From Candidatus Saccharimonadales bacterium (GTDB lineage: Bacteria; Patescibacteriota; Saccharimonadia; Saccharimonadales; UBA10212): 64,000 nucleotides of DNA. Below the pieces are notes generated by a model, which worked only from the letters and a program-made list of their open reading frames with translations, was not told the origin of the DNA and searched no databases. A program made the position numbers and the translations under genes. Positions 4,010 to 52,020 of this stretch are shown in pieces (the stretch's first letter is position 1; every line of letters begins with the position of its first letter). The DNA lies in NCBI GenBank assembly GCA_035717985.1, contig DASTHW010000016.1, forward strand, positions 65,859 through 129,858. The letters run 5' to 3'.

Positions 4010-7000
4010 CAAAGTCTATTAAAGTACGCAAAGTTGTTCTGCTGGGCTCGGGCGGACTGCGGATTGGCCAGGCTGGCGAGTTTGATTATTCTGGTTCGCA
4101 GGCCATCAAAGCTCTGCGCGAAGCCGGCGTTTACACGGTGCTTGTTAATCCGAATATTGCTACCGTCCAAACAGATACCGACATGGCCGATAAGGTCTAC
4201 TTTCAGCCGCTCAGCTTAACTAGCGTCACTAAAATTTTGCAAAAAGAGCGGCCGGATAGTATTTTGCTGAGCTTTGGCGGACAGACGGCCTTGAATTTGG
4301 GATTAGAACTTAACGATAAGGGCATCCTTGAAAAACTGGGTATTAGGGTGCTGGGCACACCGGTGCGCTCTATTAAATTAACTGAAGACCGCGAGCTATT
4401 TAAGCACACTCTTACTAAAATCGATGTCAAGACCGCCAAAAGCCAGGCTGTCTATGATTTAAAGTCAGCCCTACGCGCGGCTAACAAAATTGGCTATCCG
4501 GTCATGATGCGCTCCGGCTTCTCTCTGGGCGGACTGGGCTCTGGGCGGATCGATAATCCAGCTATGCTCAAAAAACGGGCCAGCGAGGCACTATCGGCCG
4601 TACCGCAGATTTTAATCGAAGAGTTCTTAGCCGGCTGGAAGGAAGTTGAGTATGAAGTGGTCCGCGATGGCAGTGGCAATGCTATCACCGTTTGCAATAT
4701 GGAGAATCTCGATCCTATGGGTATCCACACCGGCGAAAGCATTGTGGTGGCGCCCAGCCAGACGCTGACCAACGAGGAATATCACCGCCTGCGCGAAATC
4801 GCCATCAAAACTATTAGCCATCTAGGTATTATCGGTGAGTGCAATATCCAATACGCCTTGAACCCGGCTAACGGCGACTACCGCGTGATCGAGGTCAATG
4901 CCCGCCTGAGCCGCTCCAGTGCTTTGGCCTCCAAGGCCACCGGCTATCCCCTGGCTTACGTAGCCGCCAAGCTGGCCCTGGGAGCTAGTCTAAATGAACT
5001 AAAAAATTCGGTTACCGGCACTACGCCAGCCTTTTTCGAGCCGGCCCTTGATTATATAGCCGTTAAAATCCCCCGCTGGGATTTAAGTAAGCTAAAATCT
5101 AGCGACCACCAAATCGGTTCGGAAATGAAAAGTGTCGGCGAGGTGATGGCCCTGGGCCGGTCCTTCCCTGAGGCTCTGCAAAAAGGCCTGAGGATGTGCA
5201 ATATAGGGGCCCAAGGCTTAACCGACCATCCTTTCACCTTCGGCGACCCCTTGAGCGAAGTGGCCGACGCCACCGATAGACGAATCTTTGCGCTTTATGA
5301 AGCGCTGGCTCAAGGCGCCAGCGTTGAGCGCCTGCACCGGCTATCGGGCATTGATAGCTGGTTTTTGCAACACCTAGCCTTAATTACTGATTTTTATAGC
5401 TTTTTGTCAGCTAAACCTTTGAGTAAAGAGTTGTTAGCTGAGGCGAAAGAGCTGGGCTTTTCAGACAGTGTGATAGCTAAAGCTAAAAATCTCAGTGAGA
5501 CCGCCGTCAAAAGTAAACGTCTGGCCTGGGGTATACGCCCGGTGGTTAAGCAAATTGATACGCTAGCCGGCGAATTTGAGGCCGCTACCAACTACCTTTA
5601 TATGACTTACCACGGCCAGCAGGACGACGTAAAACCACTGAGCAAGAAAGCCATCACCGTAGTCGGCTCGGGGCCATACTGTATCGGCTCGTCGGTAGAG
5701 TTTGACTGGTGTGCCGTAAATACGGCCAAGACACTGAGCGAAAACGGCTGGCAGACCATTATGGTCAACTCTAACCCAGAGACCGTGTCTACGGATTTTG
5801 ACCGTTCTAGCCGGCTTTATTTTGAAGAACTAACCCTGGAGCGGCTACTTGATATTGCTGAGTTTGAAAAACCCCATGGCCTAATCGTATCGGTCGGCGG
5901 ACAGATTGCTAACAATTTAGCTTTGCCTCTAGCCCGTGCCGGCCAGAACATTCTGGGCACGCCGGCCGAGCAAATAGACCGCGCCGAGGACCGCCAAAAA
6001 TTCTCCAGTCTGCTAAATAAGCTTGGTATTGATCAACCGCTTTGGCAAGAAGTTACCAGCCTGGCTAGTGCTAAAAAGTTTGCCGCCCGGGTAGGCTACC
6101 CGGTATTAATTAGACCATCATATGTGCTGTCCGGTGGCGCTATGAATGTGGTGGCCGGTGAGGAGGATCTCGAAATTTATCTGCAGGCGGCCGCTAAATT
6201 ATCACCAGAACATCCGGTAGTAATATCGCAGTTTATCAGTCATTCCAAAGAACTAGAAATTGACGGCGTCGCCGAGAACGGCCAGCTGGTTATTTACGCT
6301 ATTTCCGAGCATGTTGAGAATGCCGGCGTGCACTCCGGCGACGCTACAGTAGTTTTCCCGGCTCAGACGCTTTATTTAGAGACGGTCCGCCGGGCAAAGC
6401 AAATTACCCGCCAAATTGTCAAAAATCTAAATATCACTGGACCATTTAACATCCAGTTCATTGCCAAAGATAACGAACTAAAAGTTATTGAATGCAATGT
6501 GCGGGCTTCGCGGTCCTTCCCTTTTGTTTCTAAAGTCTCTGGCCATAATTTTATCCAGATTGCCGCCGAGGCCATGCTGGGAATCAAAAACGAGCGCCAT
6601 TATCAGACCTTGGAATACGACTACGTGGGCGTAAAGAGCCCGCAGTTTTCCTATAATCGGCTTAAGGGTGCCGACCCGGTGGCCGGCGTAGAAATGGCAA
6701 GCACCGGCGAAGTGGCCTGTTTTGGCGATAATTTGCAGGAGGCTTTTTATGCTTCATGGCTGGCTACCGAGCAAAAAGTCAGGGGTAAAAACCTACTCAT
6801 TAGTCTACCGGCCGAACAACAGCCCCGCTTCATCGACGAACTTGCTCAGCTAATTAAACAGGGCTGGCAAGTCTTTGCCACCCCAGGTACCCATAAATTT
6901 ATGGCCGAGTTTAACCTAGCGACTAAGCCGCTTTATAAAATCAGTGAGAAGAAAGAGCCCAGTGTGCTGAGCGCCATCATCGGCCAAAAGCTGGATTTGA

Positions 7001-7218: not shown

Positions 7219-8316
7219 ATGGCAAACAAGAATCTAGTCAAACCGTTTTATGATCCGGCCAAATCTTATGATGATAATTTCGATAACGGTCCGTTTGGTG
7301 CCAGCAAGGTAGAGCCTTATGTTAATCAGGGCGAGCCGCAGTTTAGCTTTCTAGGCATTCCGTTATATGCGCCTTTTGGTATTGCCGCCGGCCCCTTGCT
7401 TAACAGCCGGTTCGTAAAATTTGCGCTGGAAGCCGGCTTTGACGTACCGGTTTATAAAACTCAAAGGAGCATTCAGTTCCCGGCTAACCAATTTCCTAAT
7501 GTTCTTTATATCAATATTGACGGCGACCTAACGCTCGATAGGGCGGCTAAGCCGCTAATCGGCAGACGCTCAGCGAGTAAGCCGGTCAAAGAGTTAACTA
7601 TAACCAATTCTTTTGGTAATCCGTCGCGCGGGCCGGATTTTTGGACAACCGATTTAAAAAAAGTCCGGGCCTGTCAGGGCAAAGGTCAATTAGTTATTGG
7701 CAGTGCCGTAGGCAGTATTAAAGAGGGGTTCTCTAGCGAAGATTATTTTGACGACTTTGCCCTGGCGGCTGAAATGGTAACCAAAACCGGTGTGGATGTA
7801 GTCGAAATCAATCTATCTTGCCCTAATGTAGCCACCGAGGGCGTTCTCTGCTATACGCTAAACTCGGTAGTAGCAATCTGCCAGAAGGTTAGAGCCAAAA
7901 TCGGCAATAAGCCGCTAGTCATTAAGCTAGGCTATTTTTCGCCTGAGCAGGAGCCACTATTGGTGAAGGTTCTAAAAGAGGCAGCCGACTATATAAATGC
8001 CATTTCGGCTATCAATACCATACCGGCGCCGGTGGTTGATGAATCGGGTCGGCAGGCTCTGCCCGGCCCCAACCGGCTGAGCTCGGGTATTTGCGGCCAC
8101 GCCATTAAATGGGCTGGTCTGGATATGGTCAGCCGGCTGGCCGCTATCCGCAAAAAGCTAGGTCTTAAATTTGAGATTATTGGCGTGGGCGGCGTTATGA
8201 CGCCGGCAGATTTTAAAGACTACCGCGGTGCCGGCGCTGATCTAGTTCAGACTGCTACCGGCGCCATGTGGAACCCCGGGCTAGCCGCCGAAATTAAGAA
8301 AAGCCTGAAAGTTTAA
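7219..8316 (+). CDS. pyrD: Dihydroorotate dehydrogenase, class 1-like
   Basis: EINLSCPNV (class 1 catalytic Cys context), PLVIKLGYF and IIGVGGV are TIM-barrel DHOD motifs. There is an unusual ~45-aa N-terminal extension. A GGAG SD lies before the ATG. Confidence 0.85.
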   Translation: MANKNLVKPFYDPAKSYDDNFDNGPFGASKVEPYVNQGEPQFSFLGIPLYAPFGIAAGPLLNSRFVKFALEAGFDVPVYKTQRSIQFPANQFPNVLYINIDGDLTLDRAAKPLIGRRSASKPVKELTITNSFGNPSRGPDFWTTDLKKVRACQGKGQLVIGSAVGSIKEGFSSEDYFDDFALAAEMVTKTGVDVVEINLSCPNVATEGVLCYTLNSVVAICQKVRAKIGNKPLVIKLGYFSPEQEPLLVKVLKEAADYINAISAINTIPAPVVDESGRQALPGPNRLSSGICGHAIKWAGLDMVSRLAAIRKKLGLKFEIIGVGGVMTPADFKDYRGAGADLVQTATGAMWNPGLAAEIKKSLKV

Positions 8317-45644: not shown

Positions 45645-46454
45645 TTATAGATTAATCCCGTGGAACATAACAGCAAAGGCGATGGCATTATTAAGCGCGT
45701 GCACCATCATGCCCGCATAAAGTGCGCCGGTTTTTTCCCGAAGATAGACTAACACCAAAGATAATATAAATGTATTAACACCGGCGGCCCAAAGCAGGCC
45801 CGGCCCGGCGCCGGTCAGCAGATGGGCGGCCCCAAATAGCAGGCTGGTTATAAGGCCGGCCTGCACGAAACTTAGCCGCGCCCGCAGGCCCGAAAACAGA
45901 TAACCGCGCATTAGTGTTTCTTCGCCAATCGGCGGCAAAACGACTAGCGCGATAAAAGCTAGCACGTCGCTGGCTGGACCATGGAGATTATTAAAGCCCA
46001 GATCCTGAGTGCCATTGTTGTAACCTTTAAAAATGGCGCTGGCAATTATACTAACGATAATCAAAAGGATATAAAAAACTAAAAAGCCGACACCGGCCCG
46101 GCCAACATCGCCTAATTTTGGCCGCCGGCCAAGGCCTATAAATGGTAGCTTTAAGCCCCGCTTTTTAACTGCCCAGATGGCTAGTAGTGCCGATAAACCC
46201 TCAGCTAAAAGCACATAAAAGAACTGGGCCGTTACCGAATTATCTAAACTGCCGCTGGAAGCATGCGCCAGGCCCAGAATTATTTCTAAAATAAGGGCGG
46301 CAATAAACTGGCTGACGATGAAAATAACCACCACCACGCCAAAGACAAACCATGGACCGCCTAGGTCGCTAGGCGGCTGAGCTCGCAGTGGTTTGAACAA
46401 TTTTAGTTTTCGCTTTTGAGCGGGCGAATCTTTTTGTTTAGCGCCGGACATCAA
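45645..46454 (-). CDS. CPBP (CAAX protease/bacteriocin-processing) family intramembrane metalloprotease
   Basis: EETLMRGY, FGAAH and HALNN motifs in a polytopic membrane protein. Confidence 0.8.
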   Translation of the reverse strand: MMSGAKQKDSPAQKRKLKLFKPLRAQPPSDLGGPWFVFGVVVVIFIVSQFIAALILEIILGLAHASSGSLDNSVTAQFFYVLLAEGLSALLAIWAVKKRGLKLPFIGLGRRPKLGDVGRAGVGFLVFYILLIIVSIIASAIFKGYNNGTQDLGFNNLHGPASDVLAFIALVVLPPIGEETLMRGYLFSGLRARLSFVQAGLITSLLFGAAHLLTGAGPGLLWAAGVNTFILSLVLVYLREKTGALYAGMMVHALNNAIAFAVMFHGINL

Positions 46455-47796
46455 CTATGGTTATTAGGACAACCAGAGCCAGCAGTAAAGCCATGCCAGT
46501 GGCTACGGCTCTTTCCTCTGCCAGCTTGCTAAGTGGCCGGCGAAGGATGAGCCTGGAGAATAAAATCATGAACAATCGTCCACCGTCCAGCGCCGGAATC
46601 GGTAAAACATTGAAGACGGCTAAGCTCAGCGAGACAACGGCGATTATGGCCAGCATATATTGATAGCCAATTAGACCGGCACCCCAAAGGATTTTAACTA
46701 TAATTACCGGGCCGCCCACCTGGCTGGTGGCCTCGGCCTGACCGTTTTGACGAGCTTGACTGTTACCGGTCGTCGCCCCGGCAATTAGTGAGCCCAGGCC
46801 GGCTAGGGCGTGGCCGATCCCTAAAACTGTTAATTTAATCAACTGCCAGGTAAAGCCAATAGCTGTAATCGGCGCGCTCCAGCCGGAGCGTGTAAAAGTT
46901 AGCTGATAAGGCTCGACGCCTAAATAGCCCTCAGCATTTAGAGTAACTTTTTTAGTCAGCTCTTGACCGGCATTCTTATATTTGATGAGCACCGGCGTGC
47001 CGGAAAGATACTGCGCCGTCTTTAAAAAGTCTGACGAGTTGTTAATATGATAGATCCGCGGCTTTTGGCCCGGCACCTCAATACTGGTTACCTGAGAAGC
47101 TGATTTTAAGCCGGCCTGCTTAAGTAAATTGGCCGTAATATCGGTTTTGGAGCGCAGTTTTACTGTTTTAGATTCCGCTTTAGTGTTGTGAGTATAGTTT
47201 AGCCTCACAGTTTCGCCGGCAAATTCATCAGTGGCCTGCTTTAGCTTGTCGGCGGTATTGGTTTTTATAACTCGGCCGCCGCTATCTATAGAGGTAATCT
47301 TGTCGAGCGAACTCAGGCCGGCCCTGGCCGCGGGAGAATTCTTCTCGACATAGATGGCTAAAACATCTTGTTTACTGATGTGGGTATCGCTTTTAACACT
47401 ATACTGGCCTTGCCCAAATTCGTTTTTAGTAATCAGCTGGGGCATGCCGATTAAGGCCAAAATGGTCAATATAACCACCGCCGCCACTAAATTGGCAAAG
47501 ACTCCGGCCAGCAAAATACGGGTTTTGGCACCCAGGCTGGCCGAACCAAAACTGCCGTGAGAGCGGTCACCGTCGTGCTCCCCTTTAAGCTTGACAAAGC
47601 CGCCCACCGGAAGCCAGTTAAGACTTAAGACCATGCCGCTAGTTAGCCGCTTGGCCCAAGCCCGCGGCGGAAAGCCGAGGCCGAATTCTTCTACCGATAC
47701 ACCGCTAAGCCTGGCGGCTAAAAAATGACCGCCTTCGTGCACCAGCACCAAGCCGGCGAACAGTAAAATAGCAATGATAAATAAGAAGATTTGCAT
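46438..47796 (-). CDS. rseP: Site-2 (M50) intramembrane zinc metalloprotease RseP/RasP
   Basis: HEGGHF in TM1, PDZ region(s) and PIPALDGG in the C-terminal TM. The start is probably ATG 47796; the track start is 47814. Confidence 0.88.
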   Translation of the reverse strand: MQIFLFIIAILLFAGLVLVHEGGHFLAARLSGVSVEEFGLGFPPRAWAKRLTSGMVLSLNWLPVGGFVKLKGEHDGDRSHGSFGSASLGAKTRILLAGVFANLVAAVVILTILALIGMPQLITKNEFGQGQYSVKSDTHISKQDVLAIYVEKNSPAARAGLSSLDKITSIDSGGRVIKTNTADKLKQATDEFAGETVRLNYTHNTKAESKTVKLRSKTDITANLLKQAGLKSASQVTSIEVPGQKPRIYHINNSSDFLKTAQYLSGTPVLIKYKNAGQELTKKVTLNAEGYLGVEPYQLTFTRSGWSAPITAIGFTWQLIKLTVLGIGHALAGLGSLIAGATTGNSQARQNGQAEATSQVGGPVIIVKILWGAGLIGYQYMLAIIAVVSLSLAVFNVLPIPALDGGRLFMILFSRLILRRPLSKLAEERAVATGMALLLALVVLITIVDVRR

Positions 47797-47847
47797 TACT
47801 TTGCATTCTATCATGCCGCCTGGGCCGGACAGCTGATAATTAAGGGG

Positions 47848-48411
47848 TTAGATGGTCAGAATTTCCTGCTCTTTAGCTTTAGCCAGAGCTTCAACCTCTT
47901 GTTTTTGCTCAGCCAGCAGATCATCGACCTGTTTCTCTAGACGCAAACGGTCATCTTTGCTAATCTGTTTGTCTTTCTCGGCCTGCTCGGTGCGGCGCAT
48001 AGCCTCATGGCGGATTTGGCGGCCGCTAATTAAACATTCTTCCAGCTTCTGACCCACAATTTTCACCATCTGGCCTCTGGTCTCCTCTGTCAGAGGCGGA
48101 ATTTGGATCCGCACGACCCGGCCGTCGTCAGCCGGATTCAGTCCCAGGGACTGGTCGTCTCTAATGGCGGTTGAGATGGCTTTTAAATTAGCCGGGTCAA
48201 ACGGCGAAACCTGAATTAACTGAGCTTCGGGCGTAGTGATAGTGGCGACTGCTTTTAAGGGCATAGTTTGCCCGTAGGCCTCTACCATTACCCCGTCCAG
48301 CATTCCGGGGTGGGCCCGGCCGGTGCGGATCTTACTCAGCTCCTCACGAAGGTGGTCCGAAGTAGCGGCTAATCTACGCTTAGTCTCCTCGACTGCCTGA
48401 TTTGAATTCAT
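47848..48411 (-). CDS. frr: Ribosome recycling factor
   Basis: KIRTGRAHPGMLDGVMVEAYG...LGLNP...IRIQIPPLTEE. I chose the start at ATG 48411, giving 187 aa; the track TTG at 48426 lies inside a TATAAT box. Confidence 0.95.
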   Translation of the reverse strand: MNSNQAVEETKRRLAATSDHLREELSKIRTGRAHPGMLDGVMVEAYGQTMPLKAVATITTPEAQLIQVSPFDPANLKAISTAIRDDQSLGLNPADDGRVVRIQIPPLTEETRGQMVKIVGQKLEECLISGRQIRHEAMRRTEQAEKDKQISKDDRLRLEKQVDDLLAEQKQEVEALAKAKEQEILTI

Positions 48412-48417
48412 TTTAAA

Positions 48418-48423
48418 ATTATA
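48418..48423 (-). promoter_or_regulatory. -10 box (TATAAT) 6 nt upstream of the frr ATG; candidate leaderless promoter
   Basis: The minus strand reads ttgTATAATtttaaaATG. The -35 is poor. Confidence 0.4.
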
Positions 48424-48478
48424 CAATATTCACTACCCTTGAAGAATAAGCATTTAAATGTTATAAATTATTCTGGCC

Positions 48479-48507
48479 TTGACACTATAACCCTGCCAAC
48501 TTTAAGT
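48479..48507 (+). promoter_or_regulatory. Sigma70-like promoter of cassette module 1
   Basis: TTGACA (48479-48484), a 17-nt spacer, then TTAAGT (48502-48507). AAAGGAGA SD at 48523-48530. Confidence 0.45.
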
Positions 48508-48533
48508 CTCGCACCTATTGTCAAAGGAGAAAA

Positions 48534-48719
48534 ATGTCCTCAGCCGACTGGCTCAAGGTGGCCGGGACCTACGCCGTCTTGGCGTTGGCCGGATTCAAGA
48601 CGTACAGGTCTCTGGAGCGCGGCGAAATCGTCCGGTCCATGAGCCTGGCGAGCGTGCTGGCCTCTGTCGGGGTCTGCGTCTACTCAGCGTTGGCGGCAAT
48701 TGCCGTTACGAACTCCTAG
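48534..48719 (+). CDS. Small two-TM membrane protein (61 aa)
   Basis: ATG 4 nt after AAAGGAGA, GC3-rich codons, and two hydrophobic helices (WLKVAGTYAVLALAGF / LASVLASVGVCVYSALAAIAV) joined by a basic loop. Confidence 0.6.
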   Translation: MSSADWLKVAGTYAVLALAGFKTYRSLERGEIVRSMSLASVLASVGVCVYSALAAIAVTNS

Positions 48720-48726
48720 GGAGGGG

Positions 48727-48807
48727 ATGATGAGCCGTAGTGAAACGGCCCTCCGCTGGCTGATGGTGATGGTAGCCCTGGCTACCATCCTCGTCCTGGC
48801 CCGTTAG
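48727..48807 (+). CDS. Micro-ORF, 26-aa single-TM peptide
   Basis: Not in the ORF track (<60 aa). GGGAGGGG SD lies right before ATGATG. It translates to MMSRSETALRWLMVMVALATILVLAR and has GC3-rich codons. Confidence 0.45.
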   Translation: MMSRSETALRWLMVMVALATILVLAR

Positions 48808-48909
48808 CGGACAGGCGCTGGAGGTGTTAACCCTCCGGCAAGCGGCCGACACTTAGTCGGTCCCGGGTAAGTGCGGGGTTGAAGCGCGTCTTAGAGCGCT
48901 CCCCCGCTG

Positions 48910-48954
48910 GCGGCATGAACCGCTCGCAGTATTTTTTACTCGCGGTCATGCCGC
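48910..48954 (+). terminator. Long imperfect inverted repeat; putative terminator of cassette module 1
   Basis: GCGGCATGA-ACCGC-TCGCAGTA / TACT-CGCGG-TCATGCCGC gives about 18 bp with three bulges and a TTTTT loop, followed by CTCTTTCATT. Confidence 0.4.
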
Positions 48955-48979
48955 TCTTTCATTAAATAATCCCTGCCAT

Positions 48980-49008
48980 TTGATAATGGCTCAATAAAAT
49001 TTTATAAT
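48980..49008 (+). promoter_or_regulatory. Near-consensus sigma70 promoter of cassette module 2
   Basis: TTGATA (48980-48985), a 17-nt spacer, then TATAAT (49003-49008), within a ~30% GC spacer. Confidence 0.65.
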
Positions 49009-49075
49009 TCGCCTCAGTTTACGTCCCCGTACACCCATGCGAGCGTAGGCTCGCTCCTCAACAAGGAGGTACCTC

Positions 49076-49729
49076 TTGACGGCTATCGCCGTACCAGCTC
49101 CGCAGGAGCCGGTTGATCCGGTCAGAGCGTTCATCGACCGCACTGCCGGCCGGCTGTTCGCGGCCGCGGGCTTCACGCCCAACCAGGTGACCGTTCTGGG
49201 CACCCTGGTGGCCCTGAGCGGGTGCGCGGTCTGGACCCAGCAGACGCACTCGCCCAAGCTGTACTGGGTGGGCTGGGGCCTGACGCTCGGCGGCACGGGG
49301 CTCGACGCTCTTGACGGTTCAGTCGCGCGGGTGAGAAACATGCACACCCGGTTCGGCGGCCTGCTGGACTCGCTGACCGACCGGGTCGTCGAGACTGCCA
49401 TCTGGGCGGCTCTGTTCTGGCTCTGCTCCGCCGACTGGGGCCGGCTGGGCTGTCTGCTGGCCCTGGCTGGTTCGTTCATGGTCAGCTACACGCGGGCCAA
49501 GGCGGAGCTGGACGGCCTGCGCGGCACGGCTGGCTGGGGATCGCGCCAAGTGCGCCTGCCCCTGCTGGCTGTCTGCGTGCTGGCGGCCCACTGGACCGGC
49601 TACAACTGGGTCGGCTGGCCGGTGGCCGTGCTGGCCTGGCTGACGGTCATCCAGCGCGCCGGTTCGATCAATCGTCAACTGAGCCCGTCCGACGATCCCA
49701 CTAGCTGGGGTCACGGTGGACAGCTCTAA
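49076..49729 (+). CDS. CDP-alcohol phosphatidyltransferase (PIP-synthase/PgsA-like, ~6 TM)
   Basis: TTG start 6 nt after AAGGAGG (49063-49069). It has the full motif D77-x2-D80-G81-x2-A84-R85-x8-G94-x3-D98-x3-D102 (LDALDGSVARVRNMHTRFGGLLDSLTD, nt 49304-49381). Confidence 0.9.
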   Translation: MTAIAVPAPQEPVDPVRAFIDRTAGRLFAAAGFTPNQVTVLGTLVALSGCAVWTQQTHSPKLYWVGWGLTLGGTGLDALDGSVARVRNMHTRFGGLLDSLTDRVVETAIWAALFWLCSADWGRLGCLLALAGSFMVSYTRAKAELDGLRGTAGWGSRQVRLPLLAVCVLAAHWTGYNWVGWPVAVLAWLTVIQRAGSINRQLSPSDDPTSWGHGGQL

Positions 49730-49744
49730 CCGAGAGGAGGGCTT

Positions 49745-49942
49745 TTGAGTCCGTTCGAACGCTGGCTGATCGCCGTCAGCTTGAACCTGCTCGGTGCGGC
49801 GTCGGCCATCTTCTGGCGTCAGTGCCGAAACGGCGGCGTGGTGTCCCTTGGGCGGTTCTCCGTCAGCGGGGTGGTGCCAGCTCTGGTGGGCGCCGGCGGA
49901 GTCGCTCTCATGACGGGCGACATCCTCTACATCTACGCATAG
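49745..49942 (+). CDS. Small two-TM membrane protein (65 aa)
   Basis: TTG start 4 nt after GAGGAGG (49734-49740). Two helices (WLIAVSLNLLGAASAIFW / VVPALVGAGGVALMTGDILYIY) joined by a basic loop, with GC3-rich codons. Confidence 0.55.
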   Translation: MSPFERWLIAVSLNLLGAASAIFWRQCRNGGVVSLGRFSVSGVVPALVGAGGVALMTGDILYIYA

Positions 49943-49955
49943 AGAAGGAGGAGAC

Positions 49956-50060
49956 GTGCTGGAGTGGCTGTGGGCCAGCCTGGTGTGGTCCGGTGTCGGG
50001 CTGGCGTTTGGCGGCCCGCTCGCCGCCCACGCCCTGCTGGAAGCTCAGCCGGGGCCATGA
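49956..50060 (+). CDS. Micro-ORF, 34-aa single-TM peptide
   Basis: Not in the ORF track. GTG start 4 nt after AAGGAGGAG. It translates to MLEWLWASLVWSGVGLAFGGPLAAHALLEAQPGP, with almost every third codon position G/C. Confidence 0.45.
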   Translation: MLEWLWASLVWSGVGLAFGGPLAAHALLEAQPGP

Positions 50061-50085
50061 CGCCGGCTTTCCGGTACCTCCAAGC

Positions 50086-50152
50086 AGAACCCCGCCCGAG
50101 GCACGCCTCGGGCGGGGTTCTCCGTGCGGCCGATGGGTACGGCCGCTTTTTT
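50086..50152 (+). terminator. Tandem terminators closing the cassette
   Basis: Hairpin 1 is a perfect 16-bp stem, AGAACCCCGCCCGAGG-CACG-CCTCGGGCGGGGTTCT (50086-50121), with no U-tract. Hairpin 2 is GCGGCCG-ATGGGTA-CGGCCGC (50126-50146) followed by T6 (50147-50152). The pair lies 9 nt from the convergent tsf stop. Confidence 0.8.
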
Positions 50153-50160
50153 AATTTAGA

Positions 50161-50760
50161 TTAGCTAACTTCGCCTAAAACCATGCGCGAAAAGCGCCTT
50201 ACAACAATGTTTTCGCCCAGTTTAGCAATGTGCTCTTTAATGTAATCGCCAACCTTAATATCTGGGTTTTTGATGAAGGCCTGATCACTCAAGCACTTCT
50301 CGGCAAAATATTTGGCTAGCTGACCCTCGACTATTTTATCTATCATTTCGGATGGTTTACCCTCGGCTTTGGCCTTGTCGCTAAACTCAGCTGAGACTGT
50401 CTTTTTGACGCTGGCCGGCACGTCGCCTGCTGAAATATATTCTGGCCCAGCGGCCGCTATGTGCAGGCAAATATCTTTAACTAACTCCTTAAATTCATCA
50501 GTCTTAGCTACAAAATCGGTCTCGCAGTTTACCTCGCAGATGACACCAATGCGGCCGTCGTGCACATAGGAGCCGATTAAGCCGGCCCGGGCCTCGCGTT
50601 CGCCGCGCTTCTCGGCTTTGGTTAGGCCTTTTTTACGCATTGCTGAGAGAGCTTTGTCGAAATCACCTTTAGCCTCTACTAGGGCCTGCTTAGCGTCGGT
50701 TATGCCGACGCCGGTCAGGCTCCGCAGGCGTTTAATTTCGTCGATTGATATGTCGGCCAT
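50161..50760 (-). CDS. tsf: Elongation factor Ts (short ~200-aa form)
   Basis: N-terminal UBA-like IKRLRSLTGVGITDAKQALVEAKGDFDKALSAMRKKG and VNCETDFVAKT. Its start overlaps the rpsB stop (TAATG). Confidence 0.95.
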   Translation of the reverse strand: MADISIDEIKRLRSLTGVGITDAKQALVEAKGDFDKALSAMRKKGLTKAEKRGEREARAGLIGSYVHDGRIGVICEVNCETDFVAKTDEFKELVKDICLHIAAAGPEYISAGDVPASVKKTVSAEFSDKAKAEGKPSEMIDKIVEGQLAKYFAEKCLSDQAFIKNPDIKVGDYIKEHIAKLGENIVVRRFSRMVLGEVS

Positions 50761-51581
50761 TAGTCTTTGCCCTCTTTTACGGCTGGGGCTTTAGCTTTGG
50801 CCGCTGGTTTAGCCGGTTCTTCTTTAGTGTTTGCTTTAGCTACCGGCTTGGCTGGTTTATCGGCATCCGGCTTCTCGGCGGCTGGTTTTTTAACTTTGGC
50901 TTTGCCTTCTTCGATAGCCTGAGCCACACAGTCTAGTATTAAATTAATGGTCTTAGCGGCATCGTCATTAGCCGGAATCGGAAACTTTATAGATGTTGGG
51001 TCGGTGTTGGTATCTACTAGAGCAATTACTGGGATTTTTAGCTTATTAGCTTCACGTACAGCGTTAACATCGTTGAGTATATCCACCACGAAGACGGCTC
51101 CTGGTTTGGCAGCCATCTCTTTAATGCCCCCGTAAAGCTTGTTCATCTCATCAATTTCTTCGCTCATCCGCTGAACTTCCAGCTTGCTGTAGCGGTTAGC
51201 CAGCTCGCCGCTTATCATGCGGCTTTCCAGATCTTTTAGATGACGGATACGTGAGCCGATAGTAGTTTGGTTGGTCAGCATACCGCCTAGCCAACGCTGG
51301 GAAACATAGGGCATACCGGCGGCCTCGGCCACTTCTTTAACCTTGTCTTTAGCCTGACGCTTGGTGCTAACCAATAAAACTTGCTTCCCGGCGGCGGCTG
51401 TCTCGCGGATAAAGCTTAGAGCCTCATCTAACGCGTTCACAGTTTTGGTTAAATCAATAATGTGGCTACCGTCGCGCTTGCTGTGAATATAGGGCGCCAT
51501 TTTGGGGTGCCAGCGGCTGGTTTTGTGCCCAAAGTGAGCCCCGGCCTCTAGCAATTCTTTAATATCTACGGCATTAGCCAT
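50760..51581 (-). CDS. rpsB: 30S ribosomal protein S2 with a K/A/P-rich C-terminal tail
   Basis: LLEAGAHFGHKTSRWHPKM..., with a ~50-aa tail KVKKPAAEKPDADKPAKPVAKANTKEEPAKPAAKAKAPAVKEGKD. Confidence 0.97.
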   Translation of the reverse strand: MANAVDIKELLEAGAHFGHKTSRWHPKMAPYIHSKRDGSHIIDLTKTVNALDEALSFIRETAAAGKQVLLVSTKRQAKDKVKEVAEAAGMPYVSQRWLGGMLTNQTTIGSRIRHLKDLESRMISGELANRYSKLEVQRMSEEIDEMNKLYGGIKEMAAKPGAVFVVDILNDVNAVREANKLKIPVIALVDTNTDPTSIKFPIPANDDAAKTINLILDCVAQAIEEGKAKVKKPAAEKPDADKPAKPVAKANTKEEPAKPAAKAKAPAVKEGKD

Positions 51582-51738: not shown

Positions 51739-52020
51739 ATGAACGCCAAAAAAGGCATAGACAGCCACTTTTGTGATTTGCGCGAAAGTTTAACTGATGA
51801 GGCCGCCCAGGCATACGTCGTTTTGGGCGGCGAGCACAACCAAGATGTTGTGCTTTGGGAAACTATGGCGATAGCGGCCGAACGTAGCCGGGCTCTAAAT
51901 AGACTGCTAAAGAACCCTGGCTGGTTCATCGGAGCCCTGTACAACACCTATGGTGAAGGCGAGTATCAACTTTGGCGCGATGAAGTTACCAGGAAAGCCA
52001 AAGACCTACAGGACGGTTGA
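51739..52020 (+). CDS. Hypothetical 93-aa protein
   Basis: ORF with its own candidate promoter. No recognised domain. Confidence 0.45.
   Translation: MNAKKGIDSHFCDLRESLTDEAAQAYVVLGGEHNQDVVLWETMAIAAERSRALNRLLKNPGWFIGALYNTYGEGEYQLWRDEVTRKAKDLQDG

Follow-up and report, generated by a model that had tools for sequence, protein, structure and literature searches.

The high-GC block between tsf and frr in this genome appears to be an accessory cassette that has long resided in one clade of soil Saccharimonadales, and not a fresh insertion, a reading to which a probability of roughly 0.6 is given. The cassette stays GC-rich across a whole clade of soil Saccharimonadales, and homologous cassettes were found on at least 11 other related Saccharimonadales contigs, on seven of which the cassette is flanked by frr and tsf and read from the strand opposite to them (the other four contigs are short, with one flank or none). 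An earlier note on this DNA had considered a Saccharibacteria-type genome, in line with the NCBI name of the exact protein, and had read the block as a foreign cassette with the actinobacterial host as candidate donor. As homologous cassettes occupy the same locus in other species and the best matches of the central gene lie within the lineage (70%, 64%, 51%, 46% and 42% identity), a recent, one-off transfer from the present host had to be given up.

Composition and anatomy of the cassette

The window, i.e., the whole stretch of 64,000 nucleotides that was analyzed, contains the following features in and around the block.

46438-47814, minus strand: rseP (Pfam)
47848-48411, minus strand: frr (ribosome recycling factor), left flank; Pfam RRF E=5e-53, native GC3 0.57
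48418-48423, minus strand: TATAAT -10 box, leaderless-type promoter of frr without Shine-Dalgarno sequence (SD), 6 nt before the frr ATG
48506-48517, plus strand: GTCTCGCACCTA, the leader box of module 1, placed just before the orf61 SD
48534-48719, plus strand: orf61, small membrane protein; GC3 0.85, SD AAGGAG, no family match
48730-48807, plus strand: orf25, hypothetical 25-aa single-TM peptide; GC3 0.77, SD GGGAGGGG
48808-48954, plus strand: GC-rich (0.63) structured non-coding spacer between modules 1 and 2; four hairpins, the last terminator-like
48980-49008, plus strand: sigma-70-type promoter TTGATA-17-TATAAT (11/12) of module 2, in an AT-rich segment
49039-49059, plus strand: leader hairpin GCGAGC/GCTCGC and box GGCTCGCTCCTC of module 2, just 5′ of the SD AAGGAGG
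49076-49729, plus strand: 217-aa CDP-alcohol phosphatidyltransferase, PIP-synthase-like, clade A; TTG start, GC 0.69, GC3 0.85
49745-49942, plus strand: orf65, small protein of 65 aa, two-TM by hydropathy; GC3 0.83
49956-50060, plus strand: orf34, hypothetical 34-aa hydrophobic peptide; GTG start, SD AGGAGG
50081-50126, no strand assigned: GC hairpin 1 with a perfect 16-bp core
50126-50152, plus strand: hairpin 2, GCGGCCG..CGGCCGC (50126-50146) with TTTTTT behind it, an intrinsic terminator for the cassette transcript
50161-51581, minus strand: right flank with tsf (50161-50760) and rpsB (50760-51581); Pfam, native GC3 0.50-0.55

In 200-nt windows the GC content is 0.60-0.72 across 48500-50199, with a local dip to 0.505 at 48900-49099, and about 0.41-0.57 in the flanks. 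A scan of the entire 64 kb in 1-kb windows yielded 0.671 for the block versus 0.570 as the highest value anywhere else, which makes the block the sole deviation of this kind; overall, the block has 60-72% GC and the other parts of the window 44-57%. The GC3 of the CDP-alcohol phosphatidyltransferase gene (0.849) corresponds to z=7.7 against the 63 other ORFs of the window (mean 0.529, sd 0.041, maximum 0.640), and besides GC3 also GC1 and GC2 of the cassette are raised, with an amino-acid usage of the GC type. The high GC content and foreign-like composition described in the earlier note are thereby confirmed. The composition changes abruptly at the cassette boundaries, no GC3 gradient toward the cassette could be found in the flanks, and GC3 is ordinary in the genes of the membrane proteins RseP and CPBP as well as in the highly expressed rpsB and tsf. 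The block is not uniform. AT-rich promoter segments at 48412-48533 (GC 0.31) and 48955-49047 (GC 0.39) divide it into two modules, both on the strand opposite to frr and tsf, with together five ORFs, instead of one, that all possess a Shine-Dalgarno sequence. Antisense shadow ORFs, as noticed before, are present in the block.

For orf61 and orf25 of module 1 no homologues were found in the Saccharimonadales loci compared, nor in Pfam or NCBIfam. The GC content of the spacer that follows (0.63) can be set against an intergenic mean of 0.434 and maximum of 0.51 in the window; its minimum free energy is -75.8 kcal/mol (z=-4.4), it ends in a terminator-like site (48942-48954) and it is partly similar to the spacer of one relative, L170. 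Neither the leader nor the spacer had a credible Rfam match at E≤1. Each module opens with the family leader box GGCYCGYWCCT. On both strands of about 975 kb of Saccharimonadales loci, GGCYCGYWCCY is matched exactly 11 times, and ten of these matches stand before the first ORF of a module with elevated GC3 (0.71-0.97). For eight of the ten a tsf-frr slot is documented, the other two being on incomplete contigs (L168, with tsf off the contig, and L166, with both flanks off the contig). The leader hairpin of module 2 was discarded as a proven structure: its pairing is preserved in 83% of cells, the observed covariation score was reached by 60 of 500 shuffles and RNAalifold gave no consensus for it. 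Owing to this weak covariation the leader is treated here as a conserved sequence box.

In module 2, orf65 is homologous to a 71-aa ORF 3′ of the synthase gene in L002 and L005 (tblastn, 30-32% identity, E=4e-4). The perfect 16-bp GC hairpin reported earlier is indeed found within 50081-50126, where it corresponds in position and shape to an AAAACC[stem]GGTT hairpin of the relatives. There it is followed by a T-run on the minus strand, which is degenerate in this genome, and hairpin 1 is, judged from the sequence, probably the terminator of tsf. The neighboring hairpin 2, which had been overlooked, is an ordinary terminator. An integron-like array was considered and rejected, since the 3′ hairpins with their A/T tracts are convergent terminators and the slot contains no integrase ORF.

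The frame of leader box and terminators is common to all cassette types. The cassette is placed between convergent terminators 3′ of tsf and the ancestral leaderless-type frr promoter, with module 1 encoding two small membrane peptides and module 2 running from its TTGATA-17-TATAAT promoter through the putative genes of the synthase, the 65-aa two-TM protein and the 34-aa peptide up to the T-tract terminator.

The tsf-frr slot in related species

Pfam corroborated the earlier calls of frr, tsf, rpsB and rseP. The canonical order rpsB-tsf-pyrH-frr is not present, as pyrH is absent between tsf and frr, and the idea that the block occupies a pyrH slot could not be upheld. Among 78 related species in which both tsf and frr were found, 36 have a tsf-frr distance of at most 130 nt. 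The remaining slots hold diverse cargo (PLD-like proteins, GNAT, a protease, ORFans), and none of ten cargo proteins sampled from nine tsf-frr loci contains an AA_kinase/pyrH domain. The slot is a permissive site of variable content. Other ORFans of high GC3 lie nearby in relatives (L012 864-1403, L007 7657-8856). The TATAAT box of frr is real, but its attribution to the insertion did not survive: most of the 78 relatives, many of them with tsf-frr gaps of 6-36 nt only, likewise have a TAnAAT-like box without SD some 6 nt ahead of the frr start codon ATG, which makes the box ancestral in the lineage. The reported lack of mobility features was substantiated, with no integrase or transposase ORF in 48412-50160 (ORF list and Pfam), no tRNA and no direct repeats around the block, and searches of phage and plasmid sequences revealed no relatives of the cassette.

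The arrangement of frr, synthase with small ORFs on the opposite strand, and tsf was found in L002, L004, L009, L167, L171 and L172/L173, and as a partial view in L003, L005 and L168, whose contigs are short. On L170 frr is recognized only by manual reading of the first ~100 nt, and the L166 contig contains the cassette without any flank. Four cassette genomes could be placed on a tree of rpsB, tsf and frr, where they fall within one clade of ten species (100% bootstrap). The cassette is missing from most of 80 species and also from L006, L008, L013 and L016 of the same clade. The sister species L002 and L009 share housekeeping proteins of 86% identity (100% bootstrap), yet carry synthases of two different clades, A and X, respectively. 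Within frr, very close to its 5′ end, the nucleotide homology between the two stops, to restart 3 nt past the stop codon of the small ORF. The presence of A and X in sister species suggests that cassettes get replaced.

Predicted function and affinities of the synthase

The 217-aa product matches PF01066 with 51.9 bits (cutoff 22, E=1.5e-13) and exhibits an intact signature D-x2-D-G-x2-A-R-x8-G-x3-D-x3-D (D77, D80, G81, A84, R85, G94, D98, D102), the residues of which are invariant or near-invariant in two family alignments. The top two NCBIfam families were archin_ph_syn/AIPS NF040950 (119.7 bits, cutoff 180) and PIPSynth NF045883 (86 bits, cutoff 170), so that neither equivalog cutoff was reached. 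A PDB sequence search yielded PgsA1/PIPS (E about 1e-16), the nearest solved relatives being mycobacterial PIP synthases. The AF2 model (pLDDT 81.7) predicts seven helices, an N-terminal helix and six TM helices, and the best Foldseek match of this predicted structure was 6h59 (TM-score 0.72-0.79 to 6h59/6h53). The inositol-phosphate pocket of M. tuberculosis PgsA1 consists of R94, S132, Y133, K135, R137, R152, R155 and R195 (PMC6506517), to which R103, S137, Y138, R140, K142, R157 and R160 of the window protein align; the equivalents of R94, S132, Y133, R152 and R155 are conserved and the positions of K135 and R137 remain basic. The counterpart of R195, which lies outside the direct alignment, may be R194, as suggested by an invariant T-x-x-Q-R motif. 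From sequence and model, the enzyme most likely condenses CDP-diacylglycerol and inositol phosphate. As the equivalog cutoffs were missed and no ino1, PAP2 or GT4 partners were found in the window or the Saccharimonadales loci searched, we only infer this specificity. Such an enzyme would provide a lipid-auxotrophic epibiont with an inositol phospholipid head group of the actinobacterial type.

The suspected actinobacterial affinity was verified. Among the matches listed, those from beyond the lineage that come closest (36-46% identity, topping out at about 46%) belong to soil Actinomycetota of Gaiellaceae-like type, one of them being named Gaiellaceae, on contigs of uniformly 65-72% GC; the closest actinobacterial homologue in these matches is about 40% identical. 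These homologues sit in PAP2_3-PIPS-Inos-1-P_synth-GT4 clusters, with ino1 following in most loci, and without the small ORFs of the cassettes. The metagenome scan was supplemented by an exhaustive HMMER search of 1.84e9 representative proteins, only seven of which matched at E≤1e-30; the best match beyond the query's own cluster was 51% identical and itself located in a Saccharimonadales slot.

Neighbor-joining trees of the synthases (about 195 columns, long branches) supported clade A with 99.5% and clade X with 100% bootstrap, and made clade X and the actinobacterial clade sister groups (88%). A monophyletic group of all Saccharimonadales synthases received 1% support, and they branch outside, not within, the sampled actinobacterial clade. 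Clade A is large: 12 or more clusters formed at 50% identity group with it, and all its members with examinable flanks occupy a Saccharimonadales slot. The gene tree conflicts with the species tree, with A and X in sister species and the nearest relatives of X in another phylum. As the node joining clade A with the actinobacterial sequences has 53-60% support only, the direction of transfer can be given in the conditional alone: the synthase gene may have come from high-GC Actinomycetota or may share ancestry with their PIP synthases. Its acquisition would be ancient and would have occurred on two or more occasions (clades A and X), with cassettes later being swapped between lineages inside the conserved promoter/terminator frame.

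Origin and persistence of the high GC content

The flanks of species sharing the cassette differ by a pS of 0.69-0.77, i.e., at or near saturation. Across nine genomes the GC3 of the cassette is offset from that of its flanks by +0.29 (sd 0.05) and correlates with it (Spearman 0.83, p=0.005; n=9 including related pairs, no phylogenetic correction). L009 and L167 have flanks with a dS of 1.2-2.1, yet a GC3 of 0.93 in both cassettes, and the synthases of clade X exhibit the highest values (0.93-0.94). An apparent 8:1 excess of S-to-W changes in polarized W/S counts carries no weight here, since a saturated, high-GC outgroup such as the one used yields such an excess by itself. These data suggest that the high GC content is not a decaying foreign signal and would be held about 0.29 GC3 above the host by a persistent force. 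That this force is a long-lived, locus-restricted GC-favoring process, acting on one cassette of roughly 1-2 kb in these CPR bacteria through saturating synonymous turnover, is a distinctly doubtful proposition. Biased gene conversion with repeated cassette exchange, or recurrent, patchy conversion by high-GC DNA imported from the host, would be candidates; such a process would hold GC3 ~0.29 above the genome and speed protein evolution. A diffuse recombination-driven bias is not favored by the missing GC3 gradient.

It appears unlikely that PIP-synthase genes from unsampled high-GC donors (e.g., actinobacterial hosts) were captured into the same permissive slot repeatedly, independently and fairly recently, with a GC content that has not been ameliorated in each lineage. 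Two unrelated synthase clades in the slot of sister species, the position of clade X beside the actinobacterial clade together with its top GC3, the many kinds of cargo and the high-GC3 ORFans near the slot in relatives would fit with this idea. However, searches of 5.8e9 or 1.84e9 proteins, of plasmids and of phages did not yield a donor above 51% identity, the actinobacterial operon is different (PIPS, then ino1, without the small ORFs), the leader box and terminator frame is identical across cassette types, the synthases of Saccharimonadales lie outside the actinobacterial clade as sampled and cassette GC3 tracks that of the recipient.

Still less probable is a native, vertically inherited lipid gene of the lineage, the GC-rich codons of which would be kept by mRNA or translation selection (for example, for transcript stability or the pacing of membrane insertion) without horizontal transfer. 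The size of clade A, its confinement to the slot wherever flanks can be examined and the roughly constant, host-tracking GC3 offset speak for such a gene, whereas its patchy distribution, including absence from four species of the same clade, the ordinary GC3 of rseP, CPBP, rpsB and tsf, the GC-rich non-coding spacer and the raised GC1 and GC2 speak against it.

A single recent transfer from the current actinobacterial host that displaced pyrH is highly improbable: high GC and GC3, GC-type amino-acid usage and the actinobacterial affinity of the family would agree with it, but other species have the cassette, at 42-70% identity, in the same place, the closest actinobacterial homologue among the matches listed is about 40% identical, and the lineage as a whole has no pyrH at this position. 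An assembly artefact is likewise unlikely, and a binning chimera with a high-GC fragment stitched between tsf and frr is scarcely credible in spite of the abrupt composition step, the metagenomic origin of the genome and the evidently mis-binned taxon labels of several relatives, as a Logan assembly of SRR25158356, made with a second assembler, contains an identical 15-kb contig (the reads may be those of the MAG itself), at least ten other contigs from other species and samples show this architecture too, and the block itself contains AT-rich promoters of native type, SDs and terminators.

Inositol phospholipids are signature lipids of Actinomycetota. The long-resident, conserved PIP-synthase-like cassette points to Actinomycetota, possibly Gaiellales and relatives, as hosts of soil Saccharimonadales, and to head-group remodeling of scavenged lipids in an epibiotic lifestyle. 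With its bounded GC3 offset, saturated sites and host tracking it also offers a natural test case for amelioration versus biased conversion versus selection, and the locus teaches that a composition anomaly by itself cannot date a transfer.

Compared with known systems, the window synthase shares length class (217 aa), predicted fold, the four catalytic Asp residues and conserved or conservatively replaced pocket residues with the actinobacterial PIPS (PgsA1; enzymes of M. kansasii and Renibacterium salmoninarum; 6h53/6h59, 6wm5, 5d91), to which, among solved structures, it is closest in both sequence and fold, although identity in structural alignments is only 27-29%. Unlike these, it lacks linkage to ino1, PAP2 or pimA-type genes and is followed by lineage-specific small TM ORFs. 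A predicted CDP-diacylglycerol-inositol 3-phosphatidyltransferase and PIM genes are given for ‘Ca. Teamsevenus rhizospherense’ in the part of its description drawn on here (Starr et al., 2018, PMC6031116), likewise a soil Saccharibacterium of ~50% GC with predicted phosphatidylinositol-type lipids and a proposed link to Actinobacteria; that part of the paper makes no mention of the locus, an odd composition, conservation across species or cassette replacement. Of the marks of genomic islands, deviating composition and tree conflict were observed, mobility signatures were not, and the cassette is not absent from close relatives. It resembles genomic islets at core-gene hot spots in its variable slot, conserved bounds, atypical composition and tree conflict, but differs from them by having no integrase, tRNA or repeats, a composition that is not ameliorating and a frame of leader and terminator that is conserved between non-homologous alleles. 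Effects of GC-biased gene conversion on bacterial GC3 have been described (Lassalle et al., 2015, PMC4450053), and the locally raised GC3, GC1 and GC2 of the cassette, combined with signs of recombination and allele exchange, are similar to them. It is unlike the reported bacterial effects in its step of about +0.29 GC3, its sharp bounds and its flanks without gradient. To our knowledge, the bacterial effects reported so far are small and genome-wide, and a GC-favoring process at this locus would, if true, be a bacterial counterpart of the gBGC hot spots of eukaryotes.

Composition, anatomy and predicted enzyme of the cassette

The block between frr and tsf exhibits a GC content of 0.60-0.72 over positions 48500-50199, with a dip at 48900-49099, compared to approximately 0.41-0.57 in the neighbouring genes (200-nt windows). 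In 1-kb windows it peaks at 0.671, while the maximum elsewhere in the 64 kb is 0.570. The GC content at third codon positions (GC3) of its synthase ORF is 0.849, against a mean of 0.529 (sd 0.041) in the 63 other ORFs (z = 7.7). The high-GC excursion described in an earlier note was hence borne out, and it is the only one of its kind in the 64-kb window. Pfam agrees with the positions which had been assigned to frr, tsf, rpsB and rseP, neither a tRNA nor a flanking repeat was found in the window, as had been stated, and an Rfam search matched no family. It had been overlooked, however, that two AT-rich promoter segments split the block into two modules, and that the reported 16-bp GC hairpin, which is indeed present, is directly followed by a T-tract terminator (50126-50152). 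The features of the cassette are:

48506-48517, +, leader box of module 1 (motif)
48534-48719, +, orf61 of module 1, with Shine-Dalgarno sequence (SD)
48730-48807, +, orf25 of module 1, with SD
48808-48954, +, structured GC-rich spacer (GC 0.63 vs. a window intergenic mean of 0.434; folding z = -4.4)
48980-49008, +, module 2 promoter TTGATA-17-TATAAT (from sequence)
49039-49059, +, leader hairpin and box of module 2, downstream of the promoter
49076-49729, +, 217-aa CDP-alcohol phosphatidyltransferase of module 2, the synthase (PF01066)
49745-49942, +, orf65 of module 2, with SD
49956-50060, +, orf34 of module 2, with SD

All five ORFs possess an SD and have GC3 values of 0.77-0.85, and two hairpins are located at the 3′ end of the cassette. 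The inter-module spacers of the window (48808-48954) and of L170 (770-965), whose synthases belong to the divergent Saccharimonadales clades A and X, respectively, have a multi-hairpin fold and the short stretches GGGTTGA.GC, TTGGCGGCATG and TTTCAT in common.

The synthase matches PF01066 with E = 1.5e-13. Its top NCBIfam families are archaetidylinositol-phosphate synthase and phosphatidylinositol-phosphate (PIP) synthase, with scores below the equivalog cutoffs of both, and its closest solved structures are mycobacterial PIP synthases (E ~1e-16). An AlphaFold model (pLDDT 81.7) yielded TM scores of 0.72-0.79 to PgsA1 from M. tuberculosis, but of only ~0.48 to PGP synthase. Alignments revealed four intact catalytic Asp residues. 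When the residue list for PgsA1 (PMC6506517) was applied to the alignment with solved relatives, the equivalents of R94, S132, Y133, R152 and R155 were found to be kept, and the positions of K135 and R137 to be still basic. Based on family, structure, fold, catalytic Asp and pocket residues, PIP-synthase-like chemistry is the best inference for this predicted enzyme, although it falls short of strict family membership.

The tsf-frr junction in Saccharimonadales

When GTDB species representatives were scanned with tsf, 80 Saccharimonadales loci were obtained, 78 of which include both tsf and frr. In 36 of these 78 relatives the two genes are at most 130 nt apart. The remaining gaps contain varied cargo of up to 3.9 kb, including PLD-like proteins, GNAT, a trypsin-like protease and ORFans, and none of ten cargo proteins sampled from nine loci was an amino-acid kinase or PyrH. 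As gaps are short in 36 of 78 relatives and filled with diverse cargo in others, with no PyrH among the sampled proteins, this lineage has no pyrH slot, and the proposed replacement of pyrH has to be dismissed; what lies between tsf and frr varies, and the junction acts as a general hot spot. The TATAAT in front of frr had been regarded as a new promoter caused by the insertion. Yet, in most species of the scan, including many with gaps of 6-36 nt, a TAnAAT-like box lies about 6 nt 5′ of the frr ATG and no SD is present, which identifies this promoter as ancestral. It probably accounts for the tolerance of insertions at this junction.

In most Saccharimonadales (window, 48412-48423; GTDB-scan loci L006-L085) frr apparently has a promoter of leaderless type, whose box overlaps the end of tsf where the gap measures 6-36 nt. 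The slot of L006 (6604-8878, -), whose tsf is with 82% identity the closest to that of the window among the 80 loci, contains a pair of PLD-like (PLDc_2) proteins, encoded with normal GC on the opposite strand. These may be a further case of a phospholipid head-group enzyme at this position. Between frr and rseP, uppS is found in L004 (5421-6125) and, together with a polyprenyl synthase, in L171 (2220-3981), but not in the window (47815-47847) or L002. Five contigs with a Saccharimonadales-type rpsB-tsf-frr region (L006, L046, L052, L058, L081) were deposited under Binatia, Dormiibacterota, Limnocylindria, Verrucomicrobiia and Burkholderiaceae MAGs and are probably mis-binned.

Homologous cassettes and exchange of their cargo

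By NCBI naming, the exact synthase protein originates from a Candidatus Saccharimonadales MAG, and homologues in other assemblies share 70%, 64%, 51%, 46% and 42% identity with it. Wherever the contig carries the flanks (L002, L003, L005, L004, L171, L172/L173), the synthase is located in the frr-tsf interval on the opposite strand; the contig of L166 (synthase P0004, 46% identity) is without flanks. The same placement is seen for a second synthase group (L009, L167, L168/L169, L170). In a tree of rpsB, tsf and frr the four placeable cassette genomes fall inside one ten-species clade (100% bootstrap). As the cassette recurs at the same locus in relatives, an assembly chimera is very unlikely, and the recent private insertion suggested previously is contradicted by what the earlier note itself had counted against it.

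The cassettes share a frame. The leader box GGCYCGYWCCT lies directly 5′ of the SD, and the window has one before each of its two modules. Both strands of ~975 kb of Saccharimonadales loci contain 11 exact matches, ten of which stand in front of the ORF that opens a module with elevated GC3 (eight of the ten in a documented tsf-frr slot). At the 3′ side there are two successive hairpins, the first with an A-tract and a T-run on the tsf strand, the second with its T-run on the cassette strand, and a small ORF 3′ of the synthase is kept within types. The cassette of L004 is headed by a 38-aa ORF (6849-6965, +; GC3 0.97) with a prepilin-type N-terminal cleavage/methylation motif. The tsf-frr gap of L008, which has normal GC, includes a leader box at 7526 and a small TM ORF (~7314-7568, -; GC3 0.71) and may be a decayed cassette remnant.

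The sister species L002 and L009 (100% bootstrap; housekeeping proteins 86% identical) have a near-identical 3′ frame, but their synthases share 37% identity and belong to different clades. Nucleotide homology between the two species is lost close to the 5′ end of frr, still within the gene, and resumes 3 nt past the stop of the small ORF. Between L009 and L167 the flanks exhibit a dN of 0.05 and the synthases a dN of 0.33, and the distribution of small-ORF types conflicts with the species tree. The use of clades A and X in sister species, the homology break, the dN contrast and the small-ORF conflict all indicate, at the level of sequence, that cargo is swapped within a conserved frame.

Origin of the synthase and persistence of its GC offset

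The closest homologues outside the lineage share 36-46% identity. Among the matches listed from a metagenome scan, the contigs of all but one of 80 loci have a GC of 64-72%, and the homologues sit in PAP2_3-PIPS-ino1-GT4 clusters (ino1, inositol-1-phosphate synthase); one homologue is named Gaiellaceae at NCBI. Neighbour-joining trees supported clade A (window, L002, L005, L004, P0004; 99.5% bootstrap), clade X (L009, L167, L168, L170; 100%), an actinobacterial clade (90.5%) and the union of X with the latter (88%). All three clades group together with ~60%, while monophyly of all Saccharimonadales sequences received 1%. In 1.84e9 representative proteins searched exhaustively with HMMER, only seven matches reached E<=1e-30, the best of which beyond the query's own cluster (51% identity) again lies in a Saccharimonadales slot. 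A search for a phage or plasmid reservoir of the synthase found none. These sequence relationships are best read as an exchange with high-GC Actinomycetota that is ancient and probably happened twice. The high-GC contigs and the Gaiellaceae name speak in favor of the Actinobacteria-like source suspected before, but not for a recent acquisition, with at most 46% identity outside the lineage; every sampled donor is ruled out as the origin of a recent transfer.

Between cassette-sharing species, flank pS reaches 0.69-0.77, which is at or near synonymous saturation, so that neutral amelioration would be expected to have erased a foreign GC3 signal. Cassette GC3 nevertheless ranges from 0.77 to 0.94 across nine genomes and exceeds that of the flanks by a mean of 0.29 (sd 0.05). 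The GC3 values of cassette and flanks are correlated (Spearman 0.83, p = 0.005, n = 9, a statistic ignoring phylogeny). The cassettes of L009 and L167 both have a GC3 of 0.93 despite a flank dS of 1.2-2.1. A persistent, cassette-restricted force favouring GC appears more likely than repeated fresh capture. Pure codon-usage selection is argued against by GC2 being elevated in all nine cassettes, GC1 likewise in those of clade A, and by the equally GC-rich non-coding spacer. The lack of any GC3 gradient into the flanks speaks against a diffuse recombination effect. High-GC3 ORFans (0.78-0.84) without Pfam match or leader box also adjoin or lie inside the rpsB-tsf region of L012 (864-1403, -; 3087-3747, -), L007 (7657-8856, +) and L060 (4167-4964, +); one of those in L012 occupies the interval from rpmE to rpsB, which in the window harbours a 93-aa ORF (51739-52020).

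Genes for PI synthase and PIM have been predicted in a 50%-GC soil Saccharibacterium, with a link to Actinobacteria being noted (Starr et al., 2018; PMC6031116), and the idea is therefore not new at the level of function. A limited literature search, including parts of PMC6031116, revealed no description of a constant position between tsf and frr, of a leader and terminator frame that is conserved, of two clades of synthase replacing each other in sister species or of a GC offset which does not ameliorate. The strongest earlier claims, namely that pyrH was replaced, that the block was acquired recently and that frr gained a new promoter, are not upheld. The block is a real feature: an accessory cassette whose lipid gene was probably gained by HGT and which forms a variable islet, of a known general kind, but unusual in its evolutionary behaviour.
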